Shown here in pieces: positions 28,145-61,640 of a DNA stretch of 64,000 nt. Source of the stretch: Euglena gracilis (taxonomy: Eukaryota). The notes below the pieces were generated by a model. The model was not told the origin of the DNA. It searched no databases and worked only from the letters and a program-made list of their open reading frames with translations. The translations under genes and the position numbers were made by a program. The DNA lies in contig CP154954.1 in assembly GCA_039621445.1 (NCBI GenBank), positions 38,897,816-38,961,815 on the forward strand, given 5' to 3'. Position 1 is the stretch's first letter. Every line of letters starts with the position of its first letter.

Positions 28145-28152
28145 CCCCCGCC

Positions 28153-31100: not shown

Positions 31101-34100
31101 CCCACAACCCCCCCCACACTGCCCCCCCACACCCCCCCGCACTACCCCCCCACACCCCCCCACACTACCAACAATATTTGATTTCATTTTTAGCTCACAG
31201 AAGAAAGCTTCCAAGAAAAAAACCCCCGATGCGTCGTCACTGGGTTTGCACCCCCCACCTGCCACTAACCCAGGGGTATCTGGGACCCCCCCAAAGGTCA
31301 AATTTCCCTTCTGGCGCTCGGGCGGAATATTTTGGGGATTTTTGGCAGATTTTTCCCCAAAGTGCCCAAAATGGTTCTTTTGGCCGACTTTGAGGGGCAA
31401 AAAATTCGGCCTGGTGCTTTGTGCCCACCCGAATGTCGGCCACCTACCCAGACCGTTCCACTGTGCAGGAGGGGTCCCCCCCCCGCTGCTGGACCGGAGG
31501 AGGGGTCCGACCCCCCCCAACCTGCCCTTATATCAAACCCTGGGCTGGGACTGTCGGAATGCCTCCCTCCTGCACGAGCAGTCGGCGGAAGTGATCTTCC
31601 CAGTCAGGGATCGTGGCTTATGCCTGATGGTCACACCATTCGCAGCCTCCCCCCTCCCCCCCCACCAGCCACCCACCCCTTCTCGATGCTGGTGTTGCTG
31701 CAGGGCGGAAGGAGCTCGTCGGTGGCTCTGCAAACCGCTACATTTCGCCCCAGGACGAGGACCACAGGTGGCAGTCTCTGCCCCCCCATTGCCCCGTCAC
31801 ATGTGATTGGGACGTTGCAGATTGTGGGACCGGCTGGGCTGTGGGCTTGCCCGCTTACCCATGGAAGGTGCATATTTCCGAACATTTAAAAAAGACGACT
31901 TTTTGTTGCACTATGGACCTTCCACGTCGTTCTAAAAATGGAATCTGCCTTTTTGAGTTTGAGTTTGTTTCGTCAATTTGTCCTTTTTGCTGCATTTATT
32001 GAGGTCGATGCTGCGTTCACCCTCCCCCTCCCCCCTCTACAGAACATTGGAAACCTCGTGGCGGCCTGGGCATCCGTTCCCCGTGGTTGCAGGGAGCGGC
32101 TGCAGGCCAACACGGACCGCTTGTCCAAGCAGAACGAGACACTGAAGAACGCCCGCCGCCTAGTGGCGGAGATGGAGGACCTCGGGTGTGTGAGTTTGTG
32201 CGCGTGCACACGCATGCATGGGTGCATGGGAGTGGGTGTGGGTGTGGGTGTGGGTGTGGGTGTGGGCGTGGGTGTGGGTGTGGGTGTGGGTGTGGGTGTG
32301 TGTGGATGTGGGTGTGGGTGTGGGTGTGGGTGTGTGGGTGTGGGTGTGGGTGTGTGTCTGTCTGTCTGTTTGTCTGTGTAAGTACGTCGGAGAGCTCAAA
32401 ACCAGCGGCATCCTCCATCCCCATGGCTGATGGGGAATGCCCGAACCCCTATGGGTGGTGAGAGGTGGTCCGCCCCACCTTGCGTGGTGACATGGTGGGT
32501 CGACCCACCCCCTCTGCCTCCTCCCGGGGGAGGAGGCGTCTGACCGGAAAAGCATCGCCAGGCCAAAAGAGGGGATTAACGGCACCAAACAAACAGCCGC
32601 AATGCACACGGGGGGGGGTCTCCCCCAACCAGGCCTTCCCGCCCTGCCGTGCCCGTCCCCGCCGTGGGCGGCCCCTACCTGCCCCCCCCCCCCGGCCGCC
32701 AGGGAGGACACGTCCAGCCGCCTGCGGCAGCAGCGGGAGGGGATGGAGCGGACGCTGGGCACCGTGCGGGAGACCAACCAGGAGGTGTGGGGGGGAGGGT
32801 GCTTGCGGGCGGGGTGGGTTGGGTTGGGTTGGGTTTCCCTCGATGAGGTGTTCTGTCTTTTCCAGAATTATCAGTAGCGACCCTGACTGCAATCACAAAC
32901 CACCCACACAAATCACACAGACCCGTGCCCATGAGCTTCCTGGAAATGAAAAGCTGAACAACAACCAAAATTCTATCGAAATCTTCTATCGAAATTCTTC
33001 AACAGAAATGGTAGCACGGTATGTGCCCTGAGTTCAGTTCAATTCGCCCCCTCAAAACCCCCCCTTGCTTGAATGTTTTTGCAATCCCTTCATTGTAAGC
33101 TGGTTGATTCGAAACTCTCCTGGTGGGAGGGGTACGCGCGGAGGAGGGAGGCTGGGCTCAGGGTTTTTTTTTTAGCCTTGGACCCCAGGGGGGTAGGGTG
33201 GGTGGGTCCGGCCGAGCCCCCCACCCCCCCCCCTGGGGGGGTCCCCCCAGAGGGGGGTGGGATATACTTTTTGGCTCCCGAGTGCACCGAAATTTTTTGA
33301 AAAAAGGTGCTATTCTTAGCATTTTTTTGCGATTTTTTTAGCTTTTTCGGGGAAAGGTCCCCCGGGACCCCCCCCCTGCCCCCCCCAGGGGCGGGTGGAT
33401 GGGGGACCCCCCTCTCCCCCCAGTCTTAAAAAACCGCTGGCTGCCCTTGACAGGAATCCTATGGGTGGCGCGCCGACTCCCCCCCCCCCTCCATCTCCTT
33501 GGTGGGACGGGTTCGGGCCCTTTATTCAGGGGCGTCGGTTTTTGAGGCCATGACCTTCCCCGGGTGCTTTTGGAGCCAAAGGACTTTACCTTTGCGACGT
33601 TGCGGTGGGCTTGGAGGGGTCCGACTACCCCCCCCTTCCTCCCGGGTTTGGCTCTCTTCCAGGCGTACCTCAAAGTTTTGGGCTGCAGGATTGCACCGCC
33701 GGTGGATTGGGGCCCCTTTGCCAGGCCTCAGGAACCGGCGTCCCCGGGCAGCCTCGCAGACCCCGTCGTGCGCTGCCCGGCGGCGTATGACTGACCCCCC
33801 CCTGCGCCGCTGCAGATGACGCGGACGCGCAAGATCCTGTCCATGATCCAGCGGCGGTCGCTCATGAACAAGCTGATCATCATCGCCGTCATCCTGGTCC
33901 TCACGCTGACCGTCTTCCTCATCGTCTATTTTGGGCGGGCCGGCCCTCAAAACGTTTTGGCTGCAGGTCGAACCTGTGCTCCGGTGGCAATGATATGTTG
34001 GTCGAGCGGTATCCTGTCACCCAACAAGAGAAGTCGGGCTTGCTGGGACGACACTCATCACCACCACTCTTTCCTTCCACATGGGGCACTGGTTTTTTAC

Positions 34101-36657: not shown

Positions 36658-37139
36658 CAGGGGGGGGGGGAAATGCGTTTCGCATTTTTTCGCATTTTTG
36701 CACATTTTTTGCGCATTTTTTCAATTTTTCCAAAAGTGCGCATTTTTTGCGCATTTTTTTCGCATTTTTTGCGCATTTTTTTCGTTTTTTTTTCAGCACA
36801 TTTTTTTTTGTTTTTTGGCACATTTTTTCGTGATTTTCAAAATTTTCGCATTTTTTTTGACCATTTTTGCAATTTTTTGCAAAAATTTGAAATTTTTGAC
36901 TTTTTTGAAACGTACATTTTCCTCATTATTCTACATAATTTCTTCAATTTTGGTGCTATTTTTGCATGTTTTTGGGTAATTTTTGCATTTTCGTGATTTT
37001 TGCGCATTTTTTCTCGGATTTTGCACATTTTTGCGCATTTTTTCCAAAAATGCGCATTTTTTGCGCTTTTTTTTTGCGCATTTTTGCGCATTTTTGCGCA
37101 TTTTTTCCGAGGCCGGGCGAGCGCATTCCCCCCCCCCTG
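36658..37139. mobile_element. MITE with CAG(G)n TIRs and internal (TTTTTGCGCA)-like repeats
   Basis: Termini CAG(G)nAAATGCG..CGCATT(C)nTG; exact 7-bp flanking repeat gagggtg. Related ends at ~46678 and ~48740 and a similar element at ~6336-6815. Confidence 0.7.
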
Positions 37140-39361: not shown

Positions 39362-39635
39362 GGCAGCCCGAAACTACTGCCCCCCCCGGGGGCCAGTAGT
39401 TAATCCGGGGGGGGTCAAAATAGTTTTTTTGCGTTAATGATGGAATAGGGTTAGGTGCGCGACTTAGGGTTAGGGTTAGGCCTAACTTATAGACGGGTGT
39501 TCGGTGTACCAGTTAGGCCTAACCCTAACCCTAAATCGCGCACATAACCCCATTCCATCATTAACGCAAAAAAACTATTTGACCCCCGGATTAACTACTG
39601 GGCCCCCCGGGAGGGGCCAGTAGTTTCGGGCTGCC
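39362..39635. mobile_element. Palindromic MITE with TTAGGG arms, 8-bp TSD (Merlin-like)
   Basis: Near-complete hairpin GGCAGCCCGAAACTACT..AGTAGTTTCGGGCTGCC; exact TSD gtaaaaat at 39354-39361 and 39636-39643. Confidence 0.85.
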
Positions 39636-39831: not shown

Positions 39832-40085
39832 GGCAGCTCCCAACTCTATGCCCCCCCAGGGGGGGCCATATAGTTGGGAGGATGGAGTAGGGTTAGGTGC
39901 GCGACTTAGGCTTAGGGTTAGGCCTAACTGGTACACCGAACACCCGTCTATAAGTTAGGTCTAACCCTAACCCTAAGTCGCGCACCTAACCCTACTCCAT
40001 CATTAACGCAAAAAAAGCTATTCTGACCCCCCCTCCCCATTATATGCCCCCCCCTGGGGGGGGGGCCCTATAGTGGGGAGCTGCC
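39832..40085. mobile_element. Palindromic MITE with TTAGGG arms, 8-bp TSD (Merlin-like), nested in a related element
   Basis: Termini GGCAGCTCCC..GGGAGCTGCC; exact TSD ggttagga at 39824-39831 and 40086-40093; carries the same central core as 39362-39635 in the opposite orientation. Confidence 0.85.
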
Positions 40086-41469: not shown

Positions 41470-43088
41470 CAGGGGCAGGGAGATATTCCGGTCTAAACCG
41501 GAATTACCGGAATAAAAGTGCCAGCCAACGGCTTGAAAATTCTGCAACACTCCCTTGGGAAAATCCTGAAATTGCCTGGAAGCTGTCATTGCTTTTGTAC
41601 ATTTCGCCCCACTCACCTATCCTTTGGAAGATCTTGACTTCTTCATTGGTGGTCCACGGTCCACCCTCTTCATCCAATCCATCTGACATGAGGTTGACTG
41701 AGGAAAATCATGAAAATGCATTAAACTCCACCTCCATTGCCTTTGTGTCTTTTGCATTTGTGAAGGATCAGACAATATGTGATGTATTTTTTTGCGGGGT
41801 GGAAGTGCAGGTGAAAAGAATCAACTTTGGCACAAAACACGTGGCTTCTGCCAAACATAAAGGCGTGAAAGGGGGTGCCTTCGCAAATGCACTGATGTGC
41901 ACGGCACGTTCAGGTTTTTGTTCAATTTTAGTTTGGATTTTTTCCAGGTCTGCGTCTGATTTGCGAAAAGACCCAACGTTGACAAAATTGTTGAGCAAGC
42001 ATGTCCAGGCCATCAAGCAAGCTTGTAAGACAGCAGAAAAACAGAAAACGGTTGTTTGTTGTACGTGATGTTTGATGGGTGGCTGGACTCCATTGGCAAC
42101 GAGGTGTGCTCAAACACAGTTGCGCGAGGAGAAAAACGGTACGTGGTGGGTGTGTTTTCATGGAGTGCAAATGGGCCAGCCGTGAGATCGAGCACAAGCT
42201 ACTGGTGAAGTGGTTAATGACACTTTATTCAATTTAGGCCACCCCCCCCCAAAGGATCCGAATTTACCTCCCTAAAAAGTCGGCACCCCCCCCAAAGGAG
42301 AAATCACTGTCATCTCAGGTCAAAAAGGACACAACATTATCAGAATTGTCCTTCTCAGACCAAAATTTCTATTGTCCAAGCCCAAATACAACACATAATC
42401 ACTTGACGCATTGCTTGACATTGAAAGGAGGGAGAAAATTGAAAAAGAGTGGTGGAAAATTAAGCATTTTTGTGCTTTGTCCTGATAAGTGTGCAGTGCC
42501 CTGATAATTGCGCACCCCTTGGGGCCCAAAACGTCCTTAAAATGTGCGCACCCGTGCACTTTTTAGGGGAGGGGGGTTTTATTGGAATAGGGAAGTTGAT
42601 TTTCCCTTTGCTGCTGAGCGACCCCATGATTGCGCTGGGACATTGCGCAATGAGTGCGGCATTTATGAGGTTTTTTTTTAGTCCCGCACCTTGGAACAAG
42701 CAATTATCACTCGGCGGGACAATTTTTGGGAAGAAAGAAAAAAAGCGGTGCCAGGGACTTGCCTCAAGAGAAAACCCTGGGCGCGCCAATGTTTATCAGC
42801 TTATTTCTCCCGAAAAGGCAGGCATTTGCTGTGGTGTGCAGACCAGCACCACCAAGTGCAAAGTGACCACTTTGTGGGGCTGGGCAACCAAGGAATGCTT
42901 CCTTATTCCTGAAGCCCAGGTGAGCGCCTCGGCCCAATTGTACTTCAAAAAACCCAAAGTCCATTCAGGCAGAAATTCACCGGAATAAACCGGAATAAGT
43001 TCCGGAATAAACCGGAAAACCCCGGAATAAACCAGAATACAACCCCGGAATAATTTTTTTGGCCGACCGGAGTCTCTCCCTGCCCCTG
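41470..43088 (+). mobile_element. Decayed TIR DNA transposon (hAT/P-like) with 7-bp TSD
   Basis: TIR CAGGGGCAGGGAGA(tat)TCCGGTC / GACCGGAGTCTCTCCCTGCCCCTG; exact flanks cagacac; subterminal ccggaataa repeats at ~41498-41515 and ~42980-43051; coding-like remnant at ~41680-42230. Confidence 0.7.
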
Positions 43089-43415: not shown

Positions 43416-46400
43416 ATGGCTGCCTGGCCGCCAGCCCCGCCCCTGCCCCGCCCGGCGCACTCGCCCAGCCGTGCAGCCAGACGGCGCGGCATAGAACAGC
43501 AACCCGGTGCTCTGTGAGTCACTGAATGATGAGCCCCCCCCCCCCCAACAACACCAACACCCCTGTTTTTGTTCGTCATGTGACCGCCGCGGGCCGCTGC
43601 TGTGCACGGCTGGCCGCGGCGGTGCTGGGGGCCCTGTGGGCCGCCATCCTATGCCTGGTCGCCCTGCACGGCCAGGGGGGGGGCGCCGATGAATGCAGTG
43701 CCCCTTCTCCTTGCACTCCCCTCCCTCCCCTCCTCTCCGTTCACCTCTGCAAGTCCCACACAGGGCTGGGTGGGTGACCGTCCTCCGGGGACTTCAAAGC
43801 CTACACCATCCTCCAACGGACATCTGGGGTACTCGTGTCGATTTACCGCCCATGCCATACCACTCGTCTTGTCGCCATGGTTGATGCTTGACCATCAGGT
43901 CGTCGCTTAAGCCGAAGGGCACCATCCTCACCGGGGGGGTCCAGCCAGCGAAGCTGAAACTTTGGCCGAAAACTCCGGATTTTTTTTCCGCATTATTGGG
44001 CAGAATTGGAATTTTGTGCAGCTTTTGGGGCATTTTTGCAGTTTCGATTTTTTTGGCGCCCAGTTCCACCCCTCAGGCCCAGTTGCAGCCAGGAGACCCC
44101 TGAGTGGGGAGGGGGGTCAGGCAGCAACCTTTTTCCCGCCAGCCTAACTCTCACCCAGGCCTGACTCTCACCCAGAGGGGTTGCTCAGTGACACCCTCCC
44201 GTGATCTGCTCTTTTGCATTTCCCCCGGCGGAAATCTCTCCTTCCGCCATCCCTCGCCCTGCCGTCGCTGCCCCCGCCGCCCTCCCCCAGCCCACCACCC
44301 TCCTCCACGCCCGGGCTGTGGCCGCCGCCACCGCCGCCGGGGGCACTGGGGCGCCGCTGGGGGGCCGGGGCCCCCACCGGCCGCCGTCGCGGTCCCCGGC
44401 GATCGGGAGAGCTCTCCCCCGCCGGCCGCCGGGGACCGTCCCGCCCAGCATTGCTCCGCCGCTCTGCTCAGCTCGGGGACCAAAAATGAGGAACAACGGA
44501 CAATTGCTTTCTCCGTGTCGCGAATTGATTTTTTGTTTTGAACCCCATTTGGCACTCACACGTCAGCTGCAAAACGGCCCAAACAATGTATCTTGTCCTC
44601 GCTCCAACAGTGCTTGAACAACAATCAAAGTGAACCATGTCCCAGTGACGTTCCCCAATTAAAAAAATGGGAATTTCGGTTCCACACGAGGCCTCTTGAC
44701 AGAGTCCTCCTCCTCGGGACCACCTCGGGAGCAACAAAGTTTCCAGTATTTCCGAAGGAAGTTGTGCTGGAGAAAACTATCCCCCGTGGTCCCATGCATC
44801 TGTTTGTATCAATTTTAATTTTACACCTGGCCTGAGTTGCACCAGTTTTACCCTCCTTCATATAACCCCAACGTTCTCGGACGAACTTCCACAACAGGTC
44901 ATTTGTCAGCCATCCATTGGACCACACCTACCTCCCCCACCCCTCAGCTTGTTGACCCCGGGCTTTTTAGGGTCAATTTGGCTCCTCCAAATTCGTACCC
45001 CCACACTGCCGGGAGAACCTGCAACCCATTTTTCGAGGCTTTTGGCCATTCGCTGGGGCAACATTGTCCCAATGAAGCCCCCCCCCCCCCCGGGCGGTTG
45101 GGTCCGGAGTGGTCCGAGCCACTGCACCAGGGAACCACCTGAACTCGCTGTTGGCAGCGGAGGGCTTGCTTCGCCATTTGTTGCAGAGCGGCGGCCCCGC
45201 ACCTGCCACCGGCTACGCGGCAGTGGGCGTGCTGGGCAGGGATCCATGGCAGGGGATTGCTTAAGCCAGAGGGGACCCCATCCCCTGGGGGGGGGGTCCA
45301 GCCAGCCAGCAGCTCAAATCCAGCCAGCAGCCTAAATCGGGGCTGGGAGCCCCCCCCTCCAGGGAGTCGTGTGAAATAAGTTGGGTCCAGCCCGGCAAGA
45401 GGCCGGGCCAGCTGGTCGCAGGCTGGCCAGCCAACTGCATTTTTTTTTCTCGTCGCCCTCAATGTCTGGCACATACCATCCATCCATCAAAATCAAAATA
45501 TAGAGAAGGCAAAAATGTTTTTGACCAGCACAGCCCCCTCCAGCCCCGGACCCCCCCCCTAGCCCCCCCCCGGGGGGGTACAGCCAGCAGCTCGTTTCCA
45601 GCCAGCATCCTTTTTTCCCGCCGGAGGCTGGACCCCCTTAAGAAATCCTCTGATCCATGGGAAGCCCTTCCCCCTGGGGGAGAGGGGGAGGAAGTCAAGA
45701 GAATCTTAAGTTTAAAATGAGCCCCTTTTTTCATTTGTTTTTTTTAAATGAGAGATTTTCCAACGGTTTTGGGCTGGTGTCCAGCCTTTTGACCAAGGAA
45801 CCGAAAACCTAACAGTTTAAACACCCACTCCCACCTATAGCCCCCCCCATCTTATAGCCCCCTCTGGGGACCAACCACCAAACCAGGACCTATAACCCCC
45901 CCCTCCGGGGGCCGACCATCAAATCCTATAACCCCCGGGGTTATACGTGGAGGGGTGTTTATTTATTTAAGTTGCAAATTGGGGTTTCGAGATGGGTGGG
46001 TCCGGACCCCCCCCCCCCGGGGCTCCCATGTGTCCCTGGCGCTGGGGCTGGCTGCGCTACCAGCGCTGCTGGCGCTGCTGGCCCGCCTGCCCCGGCAGTC
46101 ACGGCGGCCGACCGCGCTGTGTGCCGTTCCCCTCCACGACGGGGACGGGTACGCCGACGCACCACGGCAGGGACCGTGGCTTCCTCTGTGAGAGGCGGAT
46201 TATCCCAGAACCAAAAACGTTGAACCCACTTTTGGCTGGGAGACCCCAGGGACTTTGGCGAAAAAATGGTGTTTTGGGGGTGTACCAAAATGGACTTTGT
46301 AAGTTGAAACCCCCGGGACCTTGCCGGCCCGAAGGGAAAAAAACGCAAAAAAGCACCTTAGGAACGGGACCTTTACTGCCCTTGTTGCTCCTTTCGGCTG

Positions 46401-49400
46401 TGTCACCAGGTGTGTCCGAGCTGCCGGCGGTGTGCGTCCTGGGTGTTTGCCGGACTGCGTTGCTTGCGGCGCCTTGGTGTGGTGTTTTTGGGCTGTTTGT
46501 TAAAGCGTGGGAAGGAGGTGCCGGGGGGTGTGGGTGTGGTGTGACCAAGCCGGAAGGAGGGACGCAGGGGAAGGAAAGTGAGTACGGGGTGTTGGGCAAG
46601 GGATGTGCAGAGGGGATGAAATAGGGTCCGTAGGGAATGAAGGGGATAACCCCCAGCAGCAGACCCATGCAGGGGTGCAGGGGGAGGGGAATGCGCTGCG
46701 CATTTTTCCGCATTTTTGCACATTTTTTGTGCATTTTTGTCAATTTTTCAAAAATGCGCATTTTTGCGCATTTTTTGCGCATTTTTTTTGCACATTCCCC
46801 CCCCATTTTTGCACATTTTCCATTTTTGCACATTTTTTGCGCATTTTTTGCCCAATTTTGCACATTTTGCGATTTTTGCACATTTTCCACCCAAATCACA
46901 TGCTCACCGAATTTTGCCCACGTTCAACTGACCCATTTCTGCCATTACCCGGAAGCTAGGTAAGACCATCATGGCCACCGCCATACCCGAACTCTGACAG
47001 GAGTGAAATTATAAGCTTTTACCGCCTCTCAGATGCACAAGGGTGCTACAGAAGCGGAAAAAACCCGCGTTCTGCAGCACAGCTTCACACAGAGGAATCC
47101 CCTCCGGAGGCGGAGAGGAGGAGGAAACGGTCCCAATGGCCGAGGATGAACCTCAGCCAGCGGAACCTCTGGCAACGGAAACCCGTAGCCCATCTGTTGT
47201 GATGCTGGACACTGTGGCAGAAACTGCGCAGCGCCCAGGATAGCCGGCAGGTGAAATGACACTCGTGCCACTTTCACCAACCTAAATGGGTACGACAGGC
47301 GTACTGACCCCTCCGCGGGAAAACCCGCCGGAGACGTTACCCCACACGCCTGAGGTATTGCGCCTCAAGTTCCCTGTTTCCGGGGAAACCCCATCGACAG
47401 AGGAGCCAGCGGAACGTCTATCAGGACGACATGGAAGCTCTATTCGAGCACATCCAGAGTACTCATGACCTCGCATTCGAGGCCATGCGACAGTTCCAAA
47501 ATGAACTTAGTCTTCCAATCCTGGTCGCCTCCTCTGTCGTGACTGTAACTAGACAGCTCTATGTAGAGCGAAATCATGATTTCCACCATGATGGAACTTT
47601 GTATGCCTATGAGGGCAATGTAATCCTCGGTCCGATACTGGACAATCTGCCGGGATTCTGGCACGTTTGGTTCTGGGCGGGATACATTGCGGAAGTAGAA
47701 AATCTACGTTCTGCAGTCCAGAAGCGAGTCACTGATATTCATGCAAACAAACGGAAATCGTTTTTGCAGACTTTAAAGTCACCTGTGTATAGTCCAGGTG
47801 ACCGCGTGTGGGTGCGGAATAGCCGTACTCGCATGTTGATTTCTGGGGTTTCGGAGAACGCGTAAAACCGCCTCCGACTGCCGAGAATGCCGGCAGCCAG
47901 CCGACCAGGAGATTCTGCTGCAAGAATACTGGCACAGGGCGTGGATTACCTACGTCTTGGAGGTTTATATCTATTTTCTGGAATACATGACCATGGACGT
48001 GGATATCCAAAGGAAGTGGTTACCCCGGGGATACACCGAGGAAGACGCCAGGCCCAATGACCCAGACCGACGCAGGATGAACCTGCGGCCGGACTGGCAG
48101 GCGGCCCAAATCGGCCTCCGGGAGCACCTCGACACCCAGTTCGGGAATATCCTGATCTGGGAGGAATTACAAGCCTTTTTCGCGGCAAACGAGGAAAAAC
48201 AGCCTCGTTATGCTTTGCCGTTGCCGGCCTTCCTAGAAGACACAGGCCTACCAGGGTTGGTTTTGCCTCACTCTCCCTATCGATTAGTTTTCGGACGGGA
48301 CCCTCCGGCAGTAGGGGATGTCCCTTCGGAGAGACCCGCGCGAACGAGTGTCAGTTGCGAGACCTGGTTACCCGCCTCAAGAGAAAACCCTTGGGTGAGG
48401 TGTGGATACTCATCCAATGACGATGAGGACACTAGGGGTTTCAGAGACCCCACATTGACACGTAACCAAGGCGGGAATCCCACTCCCCTGGTCACAAGTA
48501 AGGGGCACCATGGCTGACATTGTTGGTTATGGTGAACGGAGAGTGACGCCTTGGTCATGCATCTTTTGGCCAAAATGCCTTCATTTCAGCTCTTTTTGGT
48601 GACTTTGGCTTTATTTTGGGTTTATTGTTGGAAATTTTTCTAAGTCCTTTTTCCCTTAGAATGTCACAAACTCAGCGCATTTTTTCTGCGCATTTTTGCG
48701 CATTTTTTCCGAGGGCTGTCCAGTGCATCCCCCCCCCCTGCCCATGGGTGAGCAAATGAGGCAGAATGCCGCCAACCGTGGAACCCACTCATGACCCATG
48801 AACCCATGCCCATTTCTCGGACCCTTGTTCGGTCAACTCTGAAGGATTGAGGAAGTGGTCGGGGCAGTTGGTCGGCTCAGTTGCGGGGAAAACCCTCTTT
48901 CAACAAACAGCCTTCGCCCCAACGGCGGCCGGTGGCTGTTGCCCGTCGTCGCCTGCGAAGGACCCACGAGGGCGGCGGCGGGCATTGCTGGCGGCGGCGG
49001 CGGCGGCGGCGGGCAACCTGTGGCTTCCTGCCCGGGCGTTGGGGGGCCTCGGGATGGGTTGGGTTGGCCCATCCAAAAGGTGCTTGTTTTTTGGGGGGCG
49101 AGTCGGGGAGGCAAGTCCGCCGACCAATCCCCAGCATTTCCCACCGGAATTCCTCAACCCAGTGTGTGTCCCCGCAGTGTGTGCCCCCGGAGCATGTGCC
49201 AGGCCCCCTGCCCCCCCCCCCCCCTGGAGGTCTTTGAAGACGCCGGCTCCTAAGCGTTCCAGCCGCCCAGCATCGTGCGGGCCCCCCAACCCCCGCCGCC
49301 AGGCCCGCCGCTGCGCAGGGGCCCCCCGGCCCCGGCCCCGGCCCCTCCTCTGCCTCGGCCCGCCTGCCAGCGCTGGCCTACAGCGGGGACACCCCCGCCG

Positions 49401-52400
49401 GGAGCGCCCCTTCCCCTGCCCCGGAGGTCGCTGCCCCGCCCTCCGACCCCACCGCCGTCACCGCCGGCACCGAAGAGGGGCCGGTTGGGCTAACAGACGG
49501 ACTCATAAGCAATGCTTGCAACTGTTGGGGGATATCTTGTTGCTGGCCCATCTGGGTACCCCCCCCCCCGGAAACTGTCCTCTGCCCCCCCCCCCACTGG
49601 CCCGTCCTCATAGAGAGCTGTCTCCCACCCTTGCACCCGCTGCGCTGACCTGGCGCTTGAGGAATTTTTGAAAATTTTCCGATTTTCTATTTAAAAAAGA
49701 TGCGATTCCCACGGTAAAAAAAAATCCCACCATTCTCTTCAGGCTTCTCGTTACAAATTTCGTGAAAAAATGCTTTTCTGACCTTTTTGGCACTGGGGGT
49801 CGAAAATGTCAACTTTTTTTCCCTCTGACCCGGATCTGCCAGGGAAACTGTCCTCTGCCCTCCGTACCCGCTGATCTGTCTTTATAGGGAGGGACCTGTC
49901 TCCTACCTCTGTTCCCGCTGACTTGTCTGGAGACAGTTTCCCAGGGGGGGGGTATGGGGGAAACGACAGCGCAGCCAACGTTTTGACGAAATTCCTGATT
50001 GCTGGCTGGCCAAATAATCGCAATGCAATTCGCTGCAGAAAATCTGTTGTTCCATTTTTAAAAACGAACAGCTTTGCACTAACTCCATGTCTGCAGAGCA
50101 GTAACTTGAAGAAGTGAGGAGCCATGGTTTAGCAATGTCTTCCTAGTTGTTGTTTTTTTGAAGATTTATGTTGAACCCGAGTCAGAATGAGGTGTCAGCA
50201 GGACTGTACAGGAAGCCTGAAAACCCTATATTTTTGGCCGGTTTTGCTCCTTTAAAGCGAAAAATCCGTAACCGTTCGGGCGGTTGGAAATAAATACAAC
50301 TCGTTGAGGGGGGGGGGGAGGGGGGTCCCGGGATGGAAGAGGCTGCTGGCTGGCTGGACCCCCTGGGGGGGTCAAATCTTCCTAAGCTAGCTACGCCCTG
50401 GCCCCAACCCACCAGGATGGGGTTGGGGCCAGGGCGTAGCAGAGGAAGAAAAGGTCGGAAAAGGGCTGGCCAGGGCAAATTTGGGGTCAAAAAATTGATT
50501 TTTGCATGATTGGCATTTTTGGGGCATTTTTGAGATGTTGGACCCCAGGTCGGAGCCAACAACCTTTTTCCAGCCAGCCCAAATTTTCCAGCCTCTGAGC
50601 TGGACCCCCCCGGGGTTAAAAACTCTCTGGTTGGGGTTGTCCGAACCCCCCAGGCTTTCTCATACAACCCTGGAGTGTCAGGGTTGGCCTGCTTTCATTT
50701 TGGCATTCAATCTGAGTTTAATGTGACCGTGTCTGAGATTTTTTACAAGTAACGTCGAGGGAACAATTTTTTTTTATTTTCCCACTCCCCCAATATGAAG
50801 CCCCCTCCCCAAGTGTGCAGTTCAAGACCCTCGGGGATTTTACATTGGGGGGTTCGGGGTGGAAAAATCAAACTCCTGGGGCCAATTTCTTTCATGTTTC
50901 CAATGCATTTTCAAGTCATTTTTTCAAGTCCCACCGCTTTTCAATAAAATTTCAAGTAGGAACCTTTTTTTGGCGAACAAAAAAGTCCAAGTTGTTGCCA
51001 AAGTTGCCAAAGAATAAAATATAAAAATATGAAAAAATACAAGAGCTCAACCCCCCCCTGGTTGAAAATATCACAGCAACCCAAGGATGCACAGGTTCTG
51101 GCCCTTTTTATTATGTGTCATGAACGCCTGAATAGCACACCATTTGTGTGTGTTGCATAGTTTCATTTCAATGCGCACACATTTTGTGCTTGCCCATGGG
51201 AGCTCGCCCCAGTCCCTTTAACCCCCCCAAATTTGGCAACAGAATTTAAGCACCCCCCCCCCCCCCCGGGATCAGTGACAATTCCAAATTTCAGCAAGCT
51301 TGAGGTAAAAAGAAGGGGAAGTGAAGGAATATATGAAAGCGACGCAAGCTCACAATAATAGCCGAATTTTTGGGAAATTAATCAAACTTGTTGAGTCTGC
51401 ACTGTTGTTTTTGGGGGGAGACGCTGTTATGTTGTATGTATGTTGTTGTGTTTATTTTGTATGTTGTATACAGTTTGCATACTCTGAAAAAAAAGTGCCT
51501 CCTCCTCCCTTCATTTGAACAAGTTTGGTCTGAGTTTAAGCTACGCCTCGGCGTGGAGACTGAACCGCAAATTAGAGCAAACCCCAAAATTTAACCCCAA
51601 TGGGAGCGGATTGGCTGAAACCTGGATTTAAGGAACGGGTTGCTAAAGTTTGGGGGGGGTTGAGTGTTGGGGTTCGTGATGGAATCCGTGTCTTGGCCCG
51701 GGGACAGGACGGATGCCAAGCAACGCCGGTGCAAGTGTCCGGGAGTCGTTTGGCGTGTCGCGAAGCATCGCCGGGCCTCGCCCCCCCCACCGGGCCCCTC
51801 TCCGCAGCACGGGCCTCAACGCCCAGCTGCAGAGTGCGGCGAGGGGCATGGCCAGGGCTGTGCGGGACTGCCCGAAGCCCTACGGGGTGGGGGGTGGGGG
51901 TGGGGGGGACCCCATGGCTTGACATGAGGAGGGTGTGCGGGGTCGAGAAGGGGGGGTGTCCCCCCACCTCCCCCCTGCACCACAGGGGGAGGGGGGTCCA
52001 GACCACCCCCTCGTCTGCCAAGGAGGGTCCAGACTGACCCTGGGGGACCCAACCAACCCCCCCCCCCCAAAGTCAGAATTTTCCAGCGTGCTGGACTGGA
52101 AGGAGGGTCCCCCCCAATTAGGTCTTCTCGTATTTCTGGGGTGCCAATTTATATAATAAATTCCTCAGGCCCCTAATAATTTTAATAATTTTCCTTGGGG
52201 GTCCCCCCCTCCCAGGCGGGGGGGGGGGGTAGTTGACTGCTCACCCCCAGCCCACCCGGCCTTCCCGTGCGGCCCTGGGCATGGCGGGCGGCGCCACGGT
52301 GTCCATCGCGAAGAAGGTCATCCTCTTCCCGCTGGACACGATCCGCTGCCGGCTGGAGGTGGCCCGCACCCCCCGCGTCCTGACCATACCGTTGCTTTTG

Positions 52401-55400
52401 GTGTGTCCGACCCCCCCCCCTGCCCTGGAGGTGACTGACTGATTTTGGCTCCAGCCACCCCTGCCCCCCCCCCCCATCGTCGAAGGCGCAGGAAATTTTT
52501 GGGGGGGGGGCCTTGGCCAAAATCCATTGTTCCCAAGGGCCTGGGGGGGATGGGGGTCATTCACATTCTTCCAAAACCCGTCAATCACTTTTCACAATTT
52601 TTTTTTGGAAAACCAGTCGGTCGCCACCCCGGATCCCGGGGGCAGCCGCTCTGGGATTCCAGGGAAATTGACCAGACGTGAAGGAAATGGCTACAAAAGT
52701 TCTCGGCAGCTTCGATTTGAGCCATTTTGGCCCAAGTGGCCAGGGAGTGACCCCTCCCCCACTGTGGCGGGGAGGGGGGGGGTCGGTGAGCAGTGGCATG
52801 GTCCTGACCGACCCGGAGCTCTACCGCGACCTGTATGCCGGCATCGTGCCGGTTTGGGGCCTGCGCTGACACTCAGGCCCACTTCCCCACTCAGGGGTTT
52901 TCTGAAGCCAAACGGCCCCTCCTTCTTGGGGGTGGGGGTCCACATACCGTTGGGGCCAGCTTGGCAAAGACGAGCCGGGCCAATGACAAATGTTCCTCGC
53001 CGACTCGTCACACATGTGTTGCACTTTGTTCCCCTGCCCAACCGCCCCCCAAGCCAGTTGAGCGGGCCCCACCGCAACCTCCTCGCTGGCACCCCCGCGT
53101 CGTCAGTGTTCTTTGGTGCAAAGGGCCAGCCGCTTCCGGTGGAACTCCGGTCCCAAAAAGTTACCTACCTCAGTGTCTCTCCATAAATGTTTGTGCGATC
53201 GCAGGCCAGAGCAGGCATGCGAACCCGGCCGGCAATGGGAATACCCGAGGCTGCTGCGGGCACCCTGGTGAGTGACGTGTTGCGGTCCGACGTCGGGCTG
53301 GACAACAAGCAGCTGGTGACGGTCCTCGCGGTGGGAGGCGCCCTCATCCCGACGTGGCTGGTGAAAACCCCGTCGGAGGTGTTGAAGACCCGCCGCCAGG
53401 TGTCTGTCCTCTCTTTCTCTCTTCTGGCTGGGGTGGGGGGACTTAAGAAATGAACCGGCGCCCCTTTTTTGGATTCTTTCCCAACAATTCGGAGGGAGGT
53501 GTCACTTTTCAGTAACTTTGAGGATCCTCTTTTGGATTTTTGCCAATAATCGGCACAGGAATCCGCCGAAAAATCTCAAAAAAAAAATCGCAAAATCCTC
53601 ATCCACCTTGAGGTTTTGTAAATGCGTCAACCAAGAGGGTATTTTTAAAGAAAAACTGAATTCTAAAACAAAATCGAATTGGAAATTGTGTTGAAATTGA
53701 CAATCTTTGTGACATTGTGAATTTATTGTTCATTGTGAAAATTCTGTGTATTTGTACCTATTTTTGGATCTTCCTGCAGGAAGACCTTTCTCGAAACTTT
53801 AAGCAAAAAAAAATTCCACAGAACCCCCCCAGAAGATAGATCCTCTTTTAGGATCTTCAGCAACCCAGAGAAAAGGATCCGCCGTCTATTGGGGGCAGCA
53901 TAGTGTTCCCCTGTGAGGACGCTGCGAGCAGATCCACATTAGCTTTTTTTTTGGATATTGATGGCTTACTGGGCAGTTGTATTTCTCCTGCCGGCCGAGC
54001 CCCCCAGGTCCCCCCAGGGGGGGATATACTTTTCGGCGCTGAAGGCACCAAAATTTTTGAAAAAGGTGCCATTTTTAGCATTTTTCGCGATTTTTGGCCA
54101 TTTTTGGGGAAAATTGAGTGGGTCCCCCCCCCTGGGGGGCCCCAGGGGGTGGGTGGGTAGGGGGGACCCCCCGGACTTAAAAAAGAACCCTCCCCCACAC
54201 CCACCCACCCATGGCCAGATGGCAATGGCAGGGCCTGGCCCACTCCTCCCATCAGGCCGGCACAGCGGAGGACTCCGTGGCGGAGATCGGCCGTGTGGTC
54301 CGGGAGGGCGGCGTCGGCGCGCTGTACGTCGGGTACGGGGCGAACCTCCTCTACGCCTTCCCCGCCGACGTCGTCAAGTTCCTGGTCTATGGCCGGGCCC
54401 GTTGCTGTGGGAACCCCTCCAACCACGGTCGTGTGAAGGCTGCATAGAGCAGATTCAAAACCCCTGAGGGCCATTGTTCGGCAAAAAAAAAAGAAGTGAG
54501 AAATATGAGGGTCCACTTTCCAGACCAACGCTGGGAGGTAAATAATTTAAAGAAGGCAATTTTGAGGCTTAAGGCAGTGCTTGGTTTTGCCGGGAGAAAC
54601 ATTCCCAAAGGATTGCCTGGTGCACCGTTTGGGGCCCACCGCCGGGGTCCTCCGCTGCCCAGCCTGTCTTCCCTCCCCGTCACAAGCAGCCCGCCTGCCC
54701 TCGACACCATCAAAGCCTCCCTGCACCCGGGCATCCAACCGCGGCGCTGCCTCGTTTTCAATCCTTTTCGCAATTTAGGATCGCCCAGCGTGTGAGGGCA
54801 TAAGGAAACTCTTGGTGCGGTGGAACTGGTTTTTTTTGGCAATTATTACACACATCCAGAAGCAAAACTTACGGAGAAAATGTGAAGATCAAAGTCGCTT
54901 TATGCAATCGGGTAATTCAAACTTTGGGTGGGGATCAGATTTTATCCAAAACAGAGCCCAACAACTGGGGAAGTTGCCTGAAGGGAGATCCGGTTGGAGT
55001 GTTCATTGATCCATGAGGAATCTCTTCTTCGTCATTAGTCTTTGGGCAATTTCTATCTTATTTTGGTCACATTTATTCTTTTAAAAATATTTATATTCTG
55101 TTAAATATCTGCATGTTTTTTCTGTGTTTTATGTTTCTTATTACCTCATTATCTGACTGGCTGCTCCCAGCTACATGCCCCCCCCCCCCCCGGGAGGACC
55201 ATATAGTCGAATCAGGGGGGGGGTCGTATGGTGGGACCCAGGTCCGACCTTTCGGGGAAAGTCGGGGTTATGGATTGGGATAGGGTGGGGGTTACGACTG
55301 GTTTCCCGTTGGGCTCCCCCTTTTTCGAAAGTTGGGGAGAAGTTAGGCCGCATTGCGGACGGATTTTGGGGGAATTCAGGTCGGTTTCGGGCATTTCTGG

Positions 55401-56582
55401 GGCAAACAGGTGATTCAAAAATCTTCTTCCCAAAACGAAATCTTCTTCTTCTTCCCAAAGCAACTCCTAACTTCTGGCCTAATTTGGTCCCTACCCTGCC
55501 AATTTTCGGCGCGACGGTCCTACCCCCTAACCCTATCCCTAAAATTGAATGCCCACCCTCCCCGAATCCGGCACTGCGTGGTTCCCCGACGCCGCGGGAC
55601 CGAACGTCGAAAAGTCGGATTTGGCCCACCATACGACCCCTCCCCCCTGATCCACTATATGCCCCCCCCCCCAACAGATGGCAGCTCCCAACTTTATGGG
55701 AGCTGCCATCTTATTATTATCTTGCGGTATCTTACAGGTTGCCAACACAAAAAACATACCCCCCCTGACAGCACAAAAAACATACCCCCCCCATTTTTTT
55801 TTCAGTTTTTGTGGCAGCCATAACTTCGGCTGTGCACCATGTTGAGGTCTCGGACATACTCCATATTGTTGCCTGTGAAATACCCATCTAAAGATGTCTC
55901 TGTGCATTTTCCTCGATTCCCCCTCCACCCCGAGTTATGGGCCCCTCAAAAGTGCTCCGCACATGTACATTATTATATTATCTTACAAACGGGGTTGCTC
56001 CCTCCGGGCAGGTCTGCTGGTGCTCGGGCTGGAGGCCCATGCTCTCAGCGGAAAGCATGCGGAATATGGAACGGGACCTTTGGGTCCCCTCTGACAAGTT
56101 GGTTGGTGGGTCCCAGTGCGCGGCCCGCCAGAACCCCACCCGTTGAATGGCTTCGCACATGGACGACGCCTAAATCAGGTTGAACGATCCAACTCTCCAT
56201 CGGGAAATTGTGGAACCCGCCTTTGGGACAGAACCCTTCCGTTTGGGACAGAGAGAATTGTGCCCGTGTGTTGGAAGACGGTGGGGCAAACCCAACCCAG
56301 ATCCCGCCTGGGGTGACAGGGCAGTGCCGCGGGGGCCCCTCTCCCCGGTGGAGTCGGCTGTGTTCGGAGGCGTGGCGGGGATGACCGCGGCGCTCGTGAC
56401 CACCCCGCTGGACGTGATCCGGCCCAGGGCCCACCTCCGTGGCATTTTCTGCCCCCACAACACACGCGCACACACAACACACACAACACACACAACACAC
56501 ACAACACACACACACACAACACACACACAAACACACACACACACACAACACACAACACACACACGCGCGCATGCAACACACA

Positions 56583-56614
<32 letters not shown>

Positions 56615-58557
56615 TCACACACATCACACACGTCACACATCACACATCACGCACAGCGTGGCTAGGTTGGGGTCAGGGATTTTTTTTCAACTTTGGACCT
56701 GCAGCCGTTTTTTGGCCCTTTTTTCTTCTTTTTTTTTACCCCAAAATTGACCCCCCCCCAAAAAAAGAGAGCATCCGGATCCCGCTTCCCCTCAGAGGGG
56801 GGTGAGGGTGCCCCCTGGGTTGGTGGGTGGGCCCCTCCTCTGGTCTTTAAGAAATCTCTTGTTGGGGCTGTGGTGTTGTGGTCTGGGTTATCAGTGTCGG
56901 AACCATGCCATTGTTTAAGGTGCGTCCGACCTGACTGACCGGTTTTGTTTTGTGACTGACTGGTGGCCCGGACCCCCAATTGGGTGGGGTTGGCCAGAAA
57001 TCCGAAGTGGCTACCCGACGCTTAAGGACCTGGAAAAAAATGGGGGCTTTTTGGCCAATATCCATTTATTTTAGGCCATTTTTGACCCGATTGATGACCA
57101 CCCCACGACCACAATGGGGGGAGTGGGTGGCTGGTTTTTGAAAGTGACTGACTGGCCTTTTTTTTTGGATAGCAGAAAGCAACCCTCCTCCCCCCCCCCC
57201 CGGCCAAGGAGCAATGATTGGCTGCAGTCCGGTGGATCGACCCCATTTTTAATCCACACAAACATTCCAATCAGTATTCTGGTAGCCAAACCTGGACTTG
57301 CTGCATCCACGCCCGCGCTCCACTGGAATTGAGAAAAGCGCGGGATCAACGAGCCCATTTGGCTGCCTCGGCCGCAGCTGGCGGAACTTTCGTGGTTGGG
57401 CAAACACAGAAAGTAAAAACAATGGGGGACCAGCCATTTGTCCGAATGGTCACATCCCCCCCTGCATTTCCAACGCCCTTTTGGAGGAGTTTTTTTTTGT
57501 CCTTTTTGAGATGCGAAGCCGCCAACAACACCCGGCGGAAGCCCCCGGATGGCCCTGTTTGTCCATTTTCCTCCCTGTCCATTTCGTCTGGACTGCCAGT
57601 TCCACCCCCCAACCCCGGGCATCCCGCTCTCCCCCCCTCTCCCCCGGGCTGGGCAAGCAGCCGTCCCCCGTAGTGTGTGTCCCCGAGCCCGAGGGGGCCG
57701 GCCCTGCCGGGACCCGCCTGATGGCGGAGGCCGACCAGCGGCGGTACAGCTCCGCCCTGGACTGCGCCGTCAAGACGGTCCGCGAGGGCCAGGGCCGGCT
57801 GCAGGGCGTTGCGTGGGTGGTCGCCAGTCGACAACGTTTTCCAGGCAGCAGCTCCCAGGGCCGCTGATGCAAAGTTGGGGGCAGTCGCGCTGGGCTGAAA
57901 TGAAAAAAAAAATATACAAAGCGCAAAGCTAAGAATTTTGCGAGAGGATGGTCAAATGGCCAACAATTGAGCTTTTTTTGTTTTCACATTTGTATTTTTT
58001 GCCAAAAAAAATCCCAACCTGCTGGATTTGGTCTTTTTTTTGCATGTTTTTGGCAACCAGCCGGGTCCAGCTGCCAGCCAGCCGGAACCCCCCCCCCCCC
58101 GGATCCCAACTCCCCAGGGGTCGCAGGTCCAGTCTCCAGGCAGCACCTTGGCCCACCTGTCCCACGGGCCAACCGCCAAGCCAGGGGGCCCTGCGGGCCG
58201 ACGGGTGGCCAGTGCTGCTGTCCGGGGTGGGGCCCCGGCTGACGTCCAAGGTGCTTGCCAACGCCATCCAGTTCGCCAGCTTCGACTTCAGCCAGCGCCT
58301 GCTCGGCGCCCGCCGCCAGCGGGGGATGGGACGCGGGGCGGACAGGGGAGGGGGGTCTGCCAATCAGCAGCTGCATGGCAGCATTCTCCTTCACGTGCAG
58401 TGCAAAAAATGAACAGGCTGCTTTGCCGCCCCAGAGCATCGGCCATCGAACTTCGACCCATGAAGTTGCATTCCCTCCCTGGCGGGATTTGGGGGCGTTG
58501 TCGGAGACACCACCGGGATTCCTGGGGGCTGGCCCATCCCCCCCTGCCACCGACTAG
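43416..58557 (+). CDS. Plastid-targeted mitochondrial carrier family (SLC25) protein, resembling S-adenosylmethionine carriers; about 18 exons
   Basis: Exons 43416-43470, 43608-43669, 44267-44442, 45156-45233, 46044-46163, 48945-~49035, ~49295-49468, 51809-~51847, ~52266-~52367, ~52792-52851, 53076-53123, 53262-53399, 54256-54390, 54703-54736, 56337-~56421, ~57711-57786, 58200-58313, 58552-58557 (~ marks uncertain junctions). Three carrier signatures: PLDTIRCR, PSEVLKTR and PLDVIRTR. Matching second-half motifs: LYRDLYAGIVPNLL, REGGVGALYVGYGANLL and REDGWPVLLSGVGPRL. N-terminus has a signal helix, an Ala/Pro/Arg-rich transit region and a second hydrophobic helix followed by basic residues. 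Substrate is an inference. Confidence 0.88.
45234..46043 (+). other. Nonconventional intron with CAGGG..CCCTG termini and a 7/8 flanking direct repeat
   Basis: Boundaries T|GGGCAGGGATCCATGG...CCATGTGTCCCTGGCGCT|G. About 13-bp stem. The 8-mers flanking the CAG..CTG core are gtgctggg and gcgctggg. Removal gives in-frame VGVL|GLAALP. Confidence 0.8.
46950..48560 (+). mobile_element. Fragmented LTR-retrotransposon (Ty3/gypsy-like integrase C-terminal) remnants in a carrier-gene intron
   Basis: Translated motifs SPYRLVFGRDP and YSPGDRVWVRN, typical of the region after the retroviral integrase core. The pieces are out of canonical order and no LTRs, RT or RNase H were seen. Confidence 0.5.
55159..55707. 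mobile_element. Merlin-like MITE family member in a carrier-gene intron
   Basis: Termini GGCTGCTCCC..GGGAGCTGCC; 6/8 TSD; shares gtcgtatggtgggacccaggtccgacctttcgg with the copy at ~38682. Confidence 0.65.
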
Positions 58558-59265: not shown

Positions 59266-60012
59266 ATGTCGGCCGACCGCGGCCCTCCCCGGGGGCCCCC
59301 GCCACCCGGCGGCAAAGGGATGGGCATGGGGCGTGGTGAGCCCAGGGTGACGCCCGGGCCCACCCCTCCAGGCTGTCGTTGGGGGTGTGGGGTATGGGCG
59401 GTGGTGCCTGGGGCACATCCATGCACGCACATCTGCACACAAACGTCCACAAATGTTCAAGCAAACAACTGCAAGAAGACAAACCACAGAGTGGGCGTAT
59501 TTAAATACGCACACAAACTCTTCCTCTCGCACACAACACACACAACATGCACACACAAACACACAAACATTCAAACATGCACACATAAATGTTCCCTCTC
59601 CCTCACACAACAGACGCACACATCACATAAACAAACCAGGGTTTTTTTTTTTAGTCTTGAACCCCTGGGGGGAAGGGGTGGTAGGGGGGGTGGGTCCGGC
59701 CGAGCCCCCCCCCCCCGGGTCCCCCCAGGGGGGATTTACTTCTTGGCGCCGAAGGCACCGAAAATTTTTGAAAAGGTGCTATTTTTTAGCATTTCCGCAC
59801 TTTTTTGGCCATTTTCGGGGGAAATTAGGTGGGTCCCCCAGGACAAGGGGTGGGTGGGTTGGGGACCCCCCTCCCACCGGTCTTAAAAAAAATCCCTGAC
59901 ACAAACACTAAAACACACAGGAGAGTTCCCTCTCTCTCTTACGACGCACACACAACGCACACACCCACAATACACACACACAACGCACACACCCACAATA
60001 CACACACACACA

Positions 60013-60043: not shown

Positions 60044-61609
60044 CGCCAAAGGCGGGGCCCTGCCCTTGCCCGGGCCCCGCGGCCCGCCTTTCGGTCCCCC
60101 TGGGCTGCCCCCCGGCTCCCCTGCCTCGGGCCCCGGCCCTGGCCATGCATCCACTTCCCCCGGCGTGACCCCCTTGAAAGTCATTCGAATGAAACCCCAA
60201 TTTGTCGTGGACACATATTTCCATATATATGTATGTCTGTCTGTCTGTCTGTATGTATGTATGTATGTATGTATGTATGTATGTATGTATGTATGTATGT
60301 ATGTATGTATGTATGTATGTATGTATGTATGTATGTATGTATGTATGTATGTATGCCTGAATGTATGTATGTATGTATGTATGTACGTATGTATGTATGT
60401 ATGTATGTATGTATGTATGTATGTATGTATGTATGTATGTATGTATGTATGTATGTATGCATGTATGTATGTATGTATGCATGTATGTATGTATGTAGGT
60501 ATGTATGTATGTATGTATGTATGTATGTATGTATGTATGCATGTATGTATGTATGTATGTATGTATCTTGTATGTATGTGCATGTAGTATGTATGTATGT
60601 GTGTATGTATGTATGTATGTATGTATGTATGTATGTATGTATGTATGTATGTATGTATGTGTGTATGTATGTATGTATGTATGTAGGTGTATAAGTATGT
60701 ATGTATGTATGTACGTATTCCAGATGTATGTATGTATGTATGTATGTATGTATGTATGTATGTCTGTATGTATGTATGTATGTATGTATGTATGTATGTA
60801 TGTATGTATGTATGTATGTATGTATGTATGTATGTATGTATGTATGTATGTATGTATGTATGTAGGTATGTATGTATGTATGTATGTATGTATGTATGTA
60901 TGTATGTATGTATGTATGCATGTATGTATGTCTGTATGTATGTATGTATGTATGTCTGTATGTATGTATGTATGTATGTATGTATGTATGTATGTATGTA
61001 TGTATGTATGTATGTATGTATGTATGTATGTATGTATGTATGTATGTATGTATGTATGTATGTATGTATGTATGTATGTATGTATGTATGTATGTATGTA
61101 TGTATGTATGTATGTATGTATGTATGTATGTATGTATGTATGTATGTATGTATGTATGTATGTATGTATGTATGTATGTATGTATGTATGTATGTATGTA
61201 TGTATGTATGTATGTATGTATGTGTATGCATGCATGTATGTATGTATGTATGTATGTATGTATGTATGTATGTATGTCTGTCTGTATGTATGTATGTATG
61301 TCTGTATGTATGTATATGTATGTATGCATGTATGTATGTGTGTATGTATGTATGTATGTATGTATGTTGTCTGTCTGTATGTATGTATGTATGTCTGTCT
61401 GTCTGTATGTATGTATGTATGCATGTATGTTATGTATGTATGTATGTATGTAGTATGTATGTGTGTATGTATGTATGTATGTCTGTCTGTCTGTATGTAT
61501 GTATGTATGTTTTTTGTTTGTATGTATGTATTTTTGTATGTAATGTATGTATGTATGTATGTATGTATGTATGTATGTATGTATGTATGTATGTATGTAT
61601 GTATGTATG

Positions 61610-61640
<31 letters not shown>

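Follow-up and report, generated by a model that had tools for sequence, protein, structure and literature searches.

Eight-nucleotide flanking repeats and the 3/5 geometry of putative nonconventional introns in a 64-kb window of the Euglena gracilis genome

Introduction

The origin of the nonconventional (NC) introns of euglenids has been open since the 1990s and, according to the 2025 genome paper, still 'remains unclear' (PMC12501133). Here, we ask whether the two short spacers between the terminal stem of such an intron and its splice junctions, 3 nt on the donor side and 5 nt on the acceptor side, are the two parts of an 8-bp target-site duplication (TSD) made by a DNA transposon. The question is raised by a 64,000-nt stretch of E. 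gracilis DNA (GenBank assembly GCA_039621445.1, contig CP154954.1, positions 38,897,816 to 38,961,815 of the forward strand; hereafter the window, with coordinates counted from its first letter), in which a preliminary description had singled out an 802-bp element at 45237-46038, referred to here as the focal element, as a hAT-like insertion in the position of an intron. Judged from its sequence, the window is probably euglenid-type nuclear DNA that receives small non-autonomous DNA transposons, exons included, and NC splicing would remove each such element together with one copy of the TSD, leaving no scar.

Nomura et al. (2025, PMC12501133) give the euglenid NC-intron code as 5'-N3CDG-/-CH'GN5-6|R; in their knock-in work in Euglena (EgGSL2) the spacers were fixed at 3 nt for the donor and 5 nt for the acceptor, with one additional acceptor nucleotide being tolerated and one fewer giving about 20% of the transcript. 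In E. agilis, the same paper reports, slidable junctions are found in 69.1% of the NC introns. An origin of NC introns from MITEs (miniature transposable elements with inverted repeats) was proposed in 2014, and a 2024 review labels CAG/CTG as 'TIR' (terminal inverted repeat) and describes TSD-like junction repeats, while papers of 2018 and 2025 still query the transposon theory. The MITE idea is thus already published; the explicit 8-nt arithmetic we did not find in print. Neither an equation of N3 + N5 with an 8-bp TSD nor a link between hAT and NC introns was found in the open full texts (supplements and non-open papers lay outside this search), and the words 'hAT' and 'target site (duplication)' have zero occurrences in PMC12501133, PMC3935182 and PMC4770533. 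Likewise, the available text of the NC-intron papers describes no intergenic or nested copies with a TSD and names no superfamily.

Results

Perfect 8-nt repeats at two predicted introns of a carrier gene

The cleanest cases, which the preliminary description had missed, include two in a mitochondrial-carrier-family gene on the plus strand, three exons of which match Mito_carr in Pfam. P0002, a full-length relative of 343 aa that is also a Mito_carr protein, gave eight aligned segments within 52272-58313 (tblastn high-scoring segment pairs), with 56-80% identity in seven of the eight and 31% in one long pair that crosses an intron. For the junctions, all frame-compatible donor/acceptor pairs were enumerated and scored against this relative; the predicted introns are numbered from I1 to I8 (Table 1).

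The ends of the I1 element, CAGGGCTGTGCGGG and CCCGTGCGGCCCTG, pair at 14 of 14 positions (G-U pairs allowed) and are bounded by a perfect 8-bp duplication, GGCATGGC, at 51845-51852 and 52278-52285. Removal of 433 nt joins ..AARGM to AGGATV.. and restores both the frame and a gap-free alignment with P0002; the junction is slidable over 10 nucleotide positions, one of which is exactly N3-CAG..CTG-N5|G, with the acceptor G at 52283. In I2, a perfect direct repeat of 8-9 nt, GTCCTGAC(C), at 52377-52384(5) and 52801-52808(9) abuts a terminal stem with 12 of 14 positions paired; the acceptor is the G at 52806, and once 424 nt are taken out, the frame is restored and the sequence spanning the junction is as long as that of P0002 and aligns with it without gaps. 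Since 433 = 425 + 8 and 424 = 416 + 8, each predicted intron equals the element plus one TSD copy, and the exon would be restored exactly at the predicted junctions. The earlier proposal that a cut 5 nt into each TSD copy restores the exon therefore holds as arithmetic, while the accompanying remark that most other introns match at only 1-4 of 8 flanking positions proved wrong for this gene.

For I4, homology alone gives a unique best junction (score 71; next best 67), and this junction lands on N3-CAG..CTG-N5, so that the 3/5 spacing is recovered independently here; its stem pairs at 12 of 14 positions and the acceptor is the A at 53262. I4 would be an old intron in which the duplication is no longer present and the stem and the 3/5 spacing have been kept.

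The carrier gene might, instead, be a freshly broken pseudogene, in which both perfect-repeat elements are unspliced insertions. Perfect repeats mark a very recent insertion and would look identical if the gene had just been inactivated, so that intact exons prove nothing yet; moreover, a same-species protein search with the carrier exon 54220-54444 returned 714 candidates, none of them significant, and both points weigh against splicing. Nevertheless, we consider this explanation unlikely: I1 bears the full experimentally defined splicing signature, and the two elements would have to be independent disabling insertions no more than 100 nt apart, both of which restore the frame when removed with one repeat copy left behind, as splicing predicts. 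The remaining exons are intact; of the eight exons scored, seven have a GC content at third codon positions (GC3) between 0.93 and 1.0 (0.69 in exon E3).

A perfect duplication around a nested element

The element at 45250-45652 lies 13 nt inside the focal element, in its 5' arm, and is flanked on both sides by ATCCATGG (45242-45249 and 45653-45660), which forms a perfect 8-bp duplication. Ends related to its 5' end are found at 27295 and 43896 and an end related to its 3' end at 50400; the family thus has at least three further ends in the window (four counted altogether), and none of these solo termini has a partner end within 8 kb. The nested copy is an element of the same kind at a place where selection for splicing is not expected, which supports the TSD reading. 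If both elements were spliced, the nested-in-focal arrangement could represent a nuclear nonconventional 'twintron', with the caveat that the would-be acceptor exon base of the inner element is T rather than a purine. The sequences at 45242-45249, 51845-51852 and 52795-52803 may reflect a target preference or a coincidence.

These repeats also bear on a possible spread at the RNA level, whereby excised circular introns carrying the 3+5 spacers would reverse-splice into transcripts and then be copied into DNA at sites resembling old junctions. NC introns are indeed released as full-length circles (PMC11282704, PMC12501133). However, the repeats differ among the elements (ATCCATGG, GGCATGGC, GTCCTGAC), each being the local exon sequence, as in a target duplication, and the nested copy lies outside exonic sequence and its acceptor base is no purine; hence, we regard this route as very improbable.

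Excess of flank identity in the window

All 111,916 CAG..CTG pairs lying 60-6000 bp apart were listed, with coordinates above 60100 (a tandem array) left out, and 264 of them formed a subset with strong TIRs (complementary at 11 or more of the 14 terminal bases). Flanking 8-mers were identical at 7 or more positions in five of the 264, where the background of pairs with low inverted repetition predicts 0.24; random re-pairing of the flanks gave a mean of 0.31 such pairs, and none of 5000 permutations reached five. Fully identical flanks occurred in two of the 264 (0.02 expected; 4 of 5000 permutations reached two). When the flanks were shifted outward by 8, 16 and 24 nt as a control, 1, 1 and 0 pairs were left at 7/8 or better. 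With repeat length k varied, perfect flanks among the strong-TIR pairs numbered zero at k = 5, 6 and 9-12 and two at k = 7; an excess at k = 4 stems from long palindromes. An excess of 8-mer identity over permuted controls is thus present among the strong-TIR pairs of the window. CAG-terminated inverted-repeat elements with 8-bp duplications exist here, and perhaps elements with 7-bp ones too (36658-37139 and 41470-43088); the repeat of the latter becomes 8 nt long if the terminal G is shared.

Scans for inverted repeats with flanking repeats that did not fix the termini were swamped by palindromes (10-13 kb and 38.8-40.3 kb) and TA/TG microsatellites, and from them only the two GGCAGC MITEs described below were kept. 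The region 10000-13000, which dominates the unconstrained inverted-repeat scans, is dense in short palindromic repeats built on TTTGCGCAAA and TGCGCGCA.

Repeats of 8 nt need not be made by a transposase. A newly gained gapC intron of E. agilis has 8-nt direct repeats that were read as the outcome of double-strand-break repair (PMC4770533), and a staggered break followed by fill-in and filler capture could account for the repeats described here; the I1, I2 and focal elements, each single-copy in the window, would fit such an origin. Captured filler DNA, however, is not expected to have TIRs whose CAG/CTG ends lie precisely where the repeat stops. Moreover, four independent inverted-repeat elements share a repeat of 8 nt, that of I2 is 8-9 nt long, and both the nested element and the one at 59637 are members of multi-copy families. 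We thus find break repair an improbable source of these repeats, and prefer their reading as TSDs.

The focal element

A direct reading across the focal element gives gtgctggg|CAGGGATCCATGG...CCATGTGTCCCTG|gcgctggg, in agreement with the termini and the flank identity (7 of 8) first reported for it. For 8-mers drawn from its two 150-nt flanks, the probability of a match at 7 or more positions is 0.0013; chance is unlikely, even though the context is GCTG-rich and several introns had been inspected. The putative intron 45234-46043 fits N3-CAG..CTG-N5|G, with the purine G at 46044; it is 810 nt long (3n), and one frame stays open across its removal. The inverted-repeat arms are complementary at 13 of 20 positions with the nested element left in place. 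Subtraction of the nested insertion and one copy of its repeat leaves 391 bp, and the arms then match at about 17 of 20 positions, as judged by eye from the printed ends. With 7/8 flanks, the focal element would be an older insertion.

The focal element could be either an intron that interrupts a low-complexity presequence or simply a MITE outside coding sequence. According to the second possibility, a MITE-like element was inserted into non-coding or degenerate DNA, is no intron, and its open frame is a GC-rich accident; we consider this a serious possibility for the focal element, although a somewhat doubtful one, and it concerns this case only and is compatible with the transposon reading of the others. 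The open reading frames (ORFs) that flank the element have no Pfam match covering them, and the flanks did not emerge as exons from a scan for GC3 periodicity: GC3 is 0.77-0.80 in the frame of the preliminary description (another phase reaches 0.90), below the values of most carrier exons. Long open frames are, moreover, frequent, with 672 ORFs of at least 60 aa in the 64 kb. On the other hand, the element fits the NC code and has a terminal stem, its 810 nt are divisible by 3, and its flanks encode a hydrophobic, apparently presequence-like stretch on the same strand as the carrier gene and upstream of it.

Two further observations were made in this region. The ORF at 43526-43777 (plus strand) has a Met-Met start, a hydrophobic signal-peptide-like stretch and a GC3 of at least 0.95, and may be the exon with which the targeting presequence of the carrier begins. 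Just downstream of the focal region, 46230-46649 repeats 12444-12863 (minus strand) in the opposite orientation over 420 bp with 87% identity; CAGGGACC at 46168 was considered as a boundary of this repeat and rejected, as the repeat is not bounded there.

Transposon superfamily

The preliminary description had assigned the elements to hAT, a label that draws on the 8-bp TSD and the YARNG-type, CAGGG ends and leaves the superfamily unproven. hAT MITEs have 8-bp TSDs, YARNG termini and short inverted repeats (PMC3014272); similarly, elements here show an 8-bp duplication (perfect 8-mers at 45250-45652 and 51853-52277), CAGGG ends fitting YARNG (the focal, nested, I1, I7 and 59637 elements) and inverted repeats some 11-20 bp long, and some Anolis hAT families start with CAGGGG, as does the nested element (PMC3014272). 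In contrast to hAT (PMC3014272), two CAG elements have perfect 7-mers, the ends of I2 (CATAC), I4 (CAGCC) and the element at 16103 (CAGGC) depart from YARNG, and the TSDs are mostly off the weakly palindromic NTNNNNAN-type pattern (ATCCATGG, GGCATGGC and GTGCTGGG deviate from it and GTCCTGAC follows it, a sample too small to carry weight). Furthermore, the Pfam scan found no transposase domain, including the hAT dimerisation and BED domains, in 432 ORFs (in 15.5-43.7 kb and 56-60.1 kb, only those longer than 104 aa were covered), and an autonomous partner may lie outside the 64 kb.

A documented alternative is Merlin, to which known E. gracilis transposons with GG termini and 8-9-bp TSDs belong (PMC8101967). 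The GGCAGC..GCTGCC MITEs of the window resemble Merlin in their terminal GG and 8-bp TSD; unlike Merlin, the intron-like elements start with CAG, and a GG start is seen only in 39362-39635 and 39832-40085. Cutting such a GG-CAG element by the 3/5 rule would leave a scar on removal.

Other elements and genes in the window

The coordinates of the elements are collected in Table 1. The MITE family with CAGGG..CCCTG ends and 8-bp TSDs named in the preliminary description is real, its members 59637-59898 and 33159-33439 being about 70% alike, whereas their flanks agree at only 7 and 6 of 8 positions and the second ends in CCGCTG; a third copy, 53991-54191, is 5'-truncated. The two GGCAGC MITEs, 85-89% similar, lie inside the palindromic-repeat nest at 38.8-40.3 kb and form a family separate from the CAG elements. 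The traits of MITEs are found in the small elements described here: TIRs, a flanking TSD, no coding capacity in the Pfam scans and sizes of 262-425 bp. Within the window, the 59637 family has three copies and the GGCAGC family two.

Two more putative introns had been reported, and their flank counts agree with ours. The 8-mers flanking 60141-63836, GCCCTGGC and GCCCCGGC, match at 7 of 8 positions in a stretch of repeated Gly-Pro codons; this putative 3.7-kb intron has CAT..ATG rather than CAG..CTG termini and is filled by about 889 tandem TATG copies (60224-63764; 94% matches). The flanks of 49469-51808, with arms GAAGAGGGGCC/GGAGAGGGGCC, match at 5 of 8.

Apart from the Mito_carr exons, Pfam matches among the 432 ORFs were limited to V-SNARE (28015-28464) and sub-threshold, low-complexity PARP, and Rfam returned no family in the window. 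The V-SNARE (Vti1-like) gene lies on the plus strand with putative exons at 28135-28362, 32088-32159, 32689-32814 and 33795-33929; the Pfam match falls on the first, and the GC3-rich frames look as if they encoded a SNARE motif followed by a membrane anchor at the C terminus. The MITE 33159-33439 sits between putative exons of this gene, in the last putative intron. Each of its three putative introns has GT-AG options, and these introns were left out of the intron counts. GC3-rich, leucine-rich-repeat-like frames (..GPEGA..LA.AL..N.TL..I.L) at 2530-2610, 6251-6313, 15242-15337 and 15583-15678 (plus strand) coincide with repeats of 75-80% identity in self-BLAST and have no Pfam match at E <= 0.001. 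Finally, 29511-31169 is very C-rich (GC skew -0.61 over 30-32 kb) and contains a direct duplication, 29511-30263 versus 30450-31169, of 77% identity.

Table 1. Coordinates of elements, flanking repeats and predicted carrier introns in the window.
Feature	Position	Strand	Description
Focal element	45237-46038		802 bp; CAGGG..CCCTG ends; putative NC intron 45234-46043
Focal left 8-mer	45229-45236		gtgctggg; direct sequence reading
Focal right 8-mer	46039-46046		gcgctggg; direct sequence reading
Nested element	45250-45652		403 bp; CAG..CTG; ends CAGGGGATTGCTTAAG.. / ..CTTAAGAAATCCTCTG; inverted repeat 12/14; flanks 8/8
Carrier intron I1 element	51853-52277	+	425 bp; CAGGG..CCCTG; NC intron would be 51850-52282 (433 nt)
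Carrier intron I2 element	52385-52800	+	416 bp; CAT..ATG ends; NC intron would be 52382-52805 (424 nt)
Carrier intron I3	52852-53075	+	224 nt; stem TGGGGCC/GGCCCCA; only 7 nt (3+4) outside stem
Carrier intron I4	53124-53261	+	138 nt; N3-CAG..CTG-N5|A exact; 8-mers 2/8
Carrier intron I5	53400-54255	+	Conventional GT-AG with pyrimidine tract; carries 5'-truncated MITE copy 53991-54191
Carrier intron I7	56423-57711	+	1289 nt; CAGGGCC..GGCCCTG; 7 nt outside stem; junction slides over 3 positions
CAGGC..GCCTG element	16103-18116		2014 bp; inverted repeat 12/14; flanks gttggggt/gctggggt, 7/8
Second 7-nt-repeat element	36658-37139		Flank repeat GAGGGTG
CAGGGG..CCCCTG element	41470-43088		1619 bp; inverted repeat 14/14; perfect 7-nt flank repeat CAGACAC
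MITE	59637-59898		262 bp; CAGGG(T)11..(A)8TCCCTG; flanks aaacaaac/acacaaac, 7/8, in ACA-rich DNA
MITE, same family as 59637-59898	33159-33439		281 bp; ends CCGCTG; flanks gctgggct/gctgccct, 6/8
GG-terminated MITE	39362-39635		274 bp; GGCAGC..GCTGCC; perfect 8-bp duplication GTAAAAAT
Sister GG-terminated MITE	39832-40085		GGCAGC..GCTGCC; perfect 8-bp duplication GGTTAGGA

Discussion

The analysis partly confirms the observations from which it started and partly supports their interpretation. The geometric reading was right, and the elements at 45250-45652, 51853-52277 and 52385-52800 support its arithmetic better than the focal element does, i.e., better than the preliminary description knew. 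The termini, stems and repeats of these elements, their statistical excess, the location in conserved coding sequence and the restored frame are direct observations. Splicing at the predicted positions, arrival by transposition and the kind of transposase are what we infer from them.

We propose the following course of events. An element with CAG..CTG (more loosely, CA..TG) termini and TIRs of 11-20 bp would insert with an 8-bp, at times apparently 7-bp, TSD. In the transcript, the inverted repeats would pair and bring the element ends together, and the NC cuts, one lying 3 nt upstream of CAG and the other 5 nt downstream of CTG, would fall between t5 and t6 of each copy of a duplication t1-t8. 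The intron would then consist of t6-t8, the element and t1-t5, and the ligated exon would keep one intact t1-t8. Insertions with perfect repeats (51853-52277, 52385-52800 and the nested 45250-45652) would be young, and ageing would lead from these through the 7/8 repeats of the focal element to introns such as 53124-53261, in which only the stem and the 3/5 spacing persist. The 3+4 introns I3 and I7 would correspond to 7-bp duplications. As long as the 8-nt TSDs survive, young introns would be slidable. More tentatively, and with odds that we would put slightly short of even, the 3/5 ruler may be the 8-bp TSD of a living, CAG-terminated transposon family, NC introns being simply these transposons, with their gain still ongoing and the slidable share representing the surviving TSDs.

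Several findings weigh against this proposal. The 3/5 spacing outside CAG and CTG, given in the preliminary description for the introns of the window, holds for the focal element, I1 and I4, which follow the published code and resemble euglenid NC introns (Nomura et al., 2025; Milanowski et al., 2014, 2016) in having CAG at +4..+6, CTG at -8..-6, a stem and a purine acceptor. The CAT/ATG ends of I2 fall outside the CDG/CH'G code, I3 and I7 have good stems with 7 nt rather than 8 beyond them, neither geometry describes I8, and I6 is ambiguous. By homology, a stem-less junction of I1 scores only 2 points lower, and two non-slidable junctions of I2 score 4-5 points higher, than the junctions preferred here. 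In the 64-kb window, I1 and I2 have no second copy, so that their mobility is read from structure only; nor did self-BLAST and a motif search of the window reveal one of the focal element or its ends, for which the preliminary description had required a multi-copy family. The low GC3 of the focal flanks and the absence of a transposase domain from the scanned ORFs point the same way.

The proposed course has parallels in other eukaryotes. Introners are made by DNA transposons whose TSD is turned into a splice site (Huff, Zilberman and Roy, 2016, as referred to in PMC11170887, PMC7789003 and PMC11282704), and, as we suggest here, the element is removed with one TSD copy and insertion into an exon is tolerated at once. 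They are, however, spliceosomal and use canonical sites, whereas the cut considered here would be measured from an RNA stem by machinery that is apparently non-spliceosomal. Closer in some respects are the introner elements of Amoebophrya (PMC7789003), which are non-canonical, carry inverted repeats of 8-20 nt and direct repeats overlapping the boundaries, and form a hairpin that brings the exons together; they differ in that their direct repeats are 3-5 nt long and variable, and that they are without a fixed CAG/CTG and a 3/5 ruler.

If the 3/5 cuts are indeed the two parts of an 8-bp TSD, the origin of euglenid NC introns would be settled as DNA transposition, and the many slidable junctions would be explained. 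Any new insertion into an exon would be removable immediately and without a scar, and nested elements could act as nuclear NC twintrons. Such an arrangement between host and transposon would make insertions into genes nearly cost-free, and would explain why NC introns outnumber GT-AG introns.

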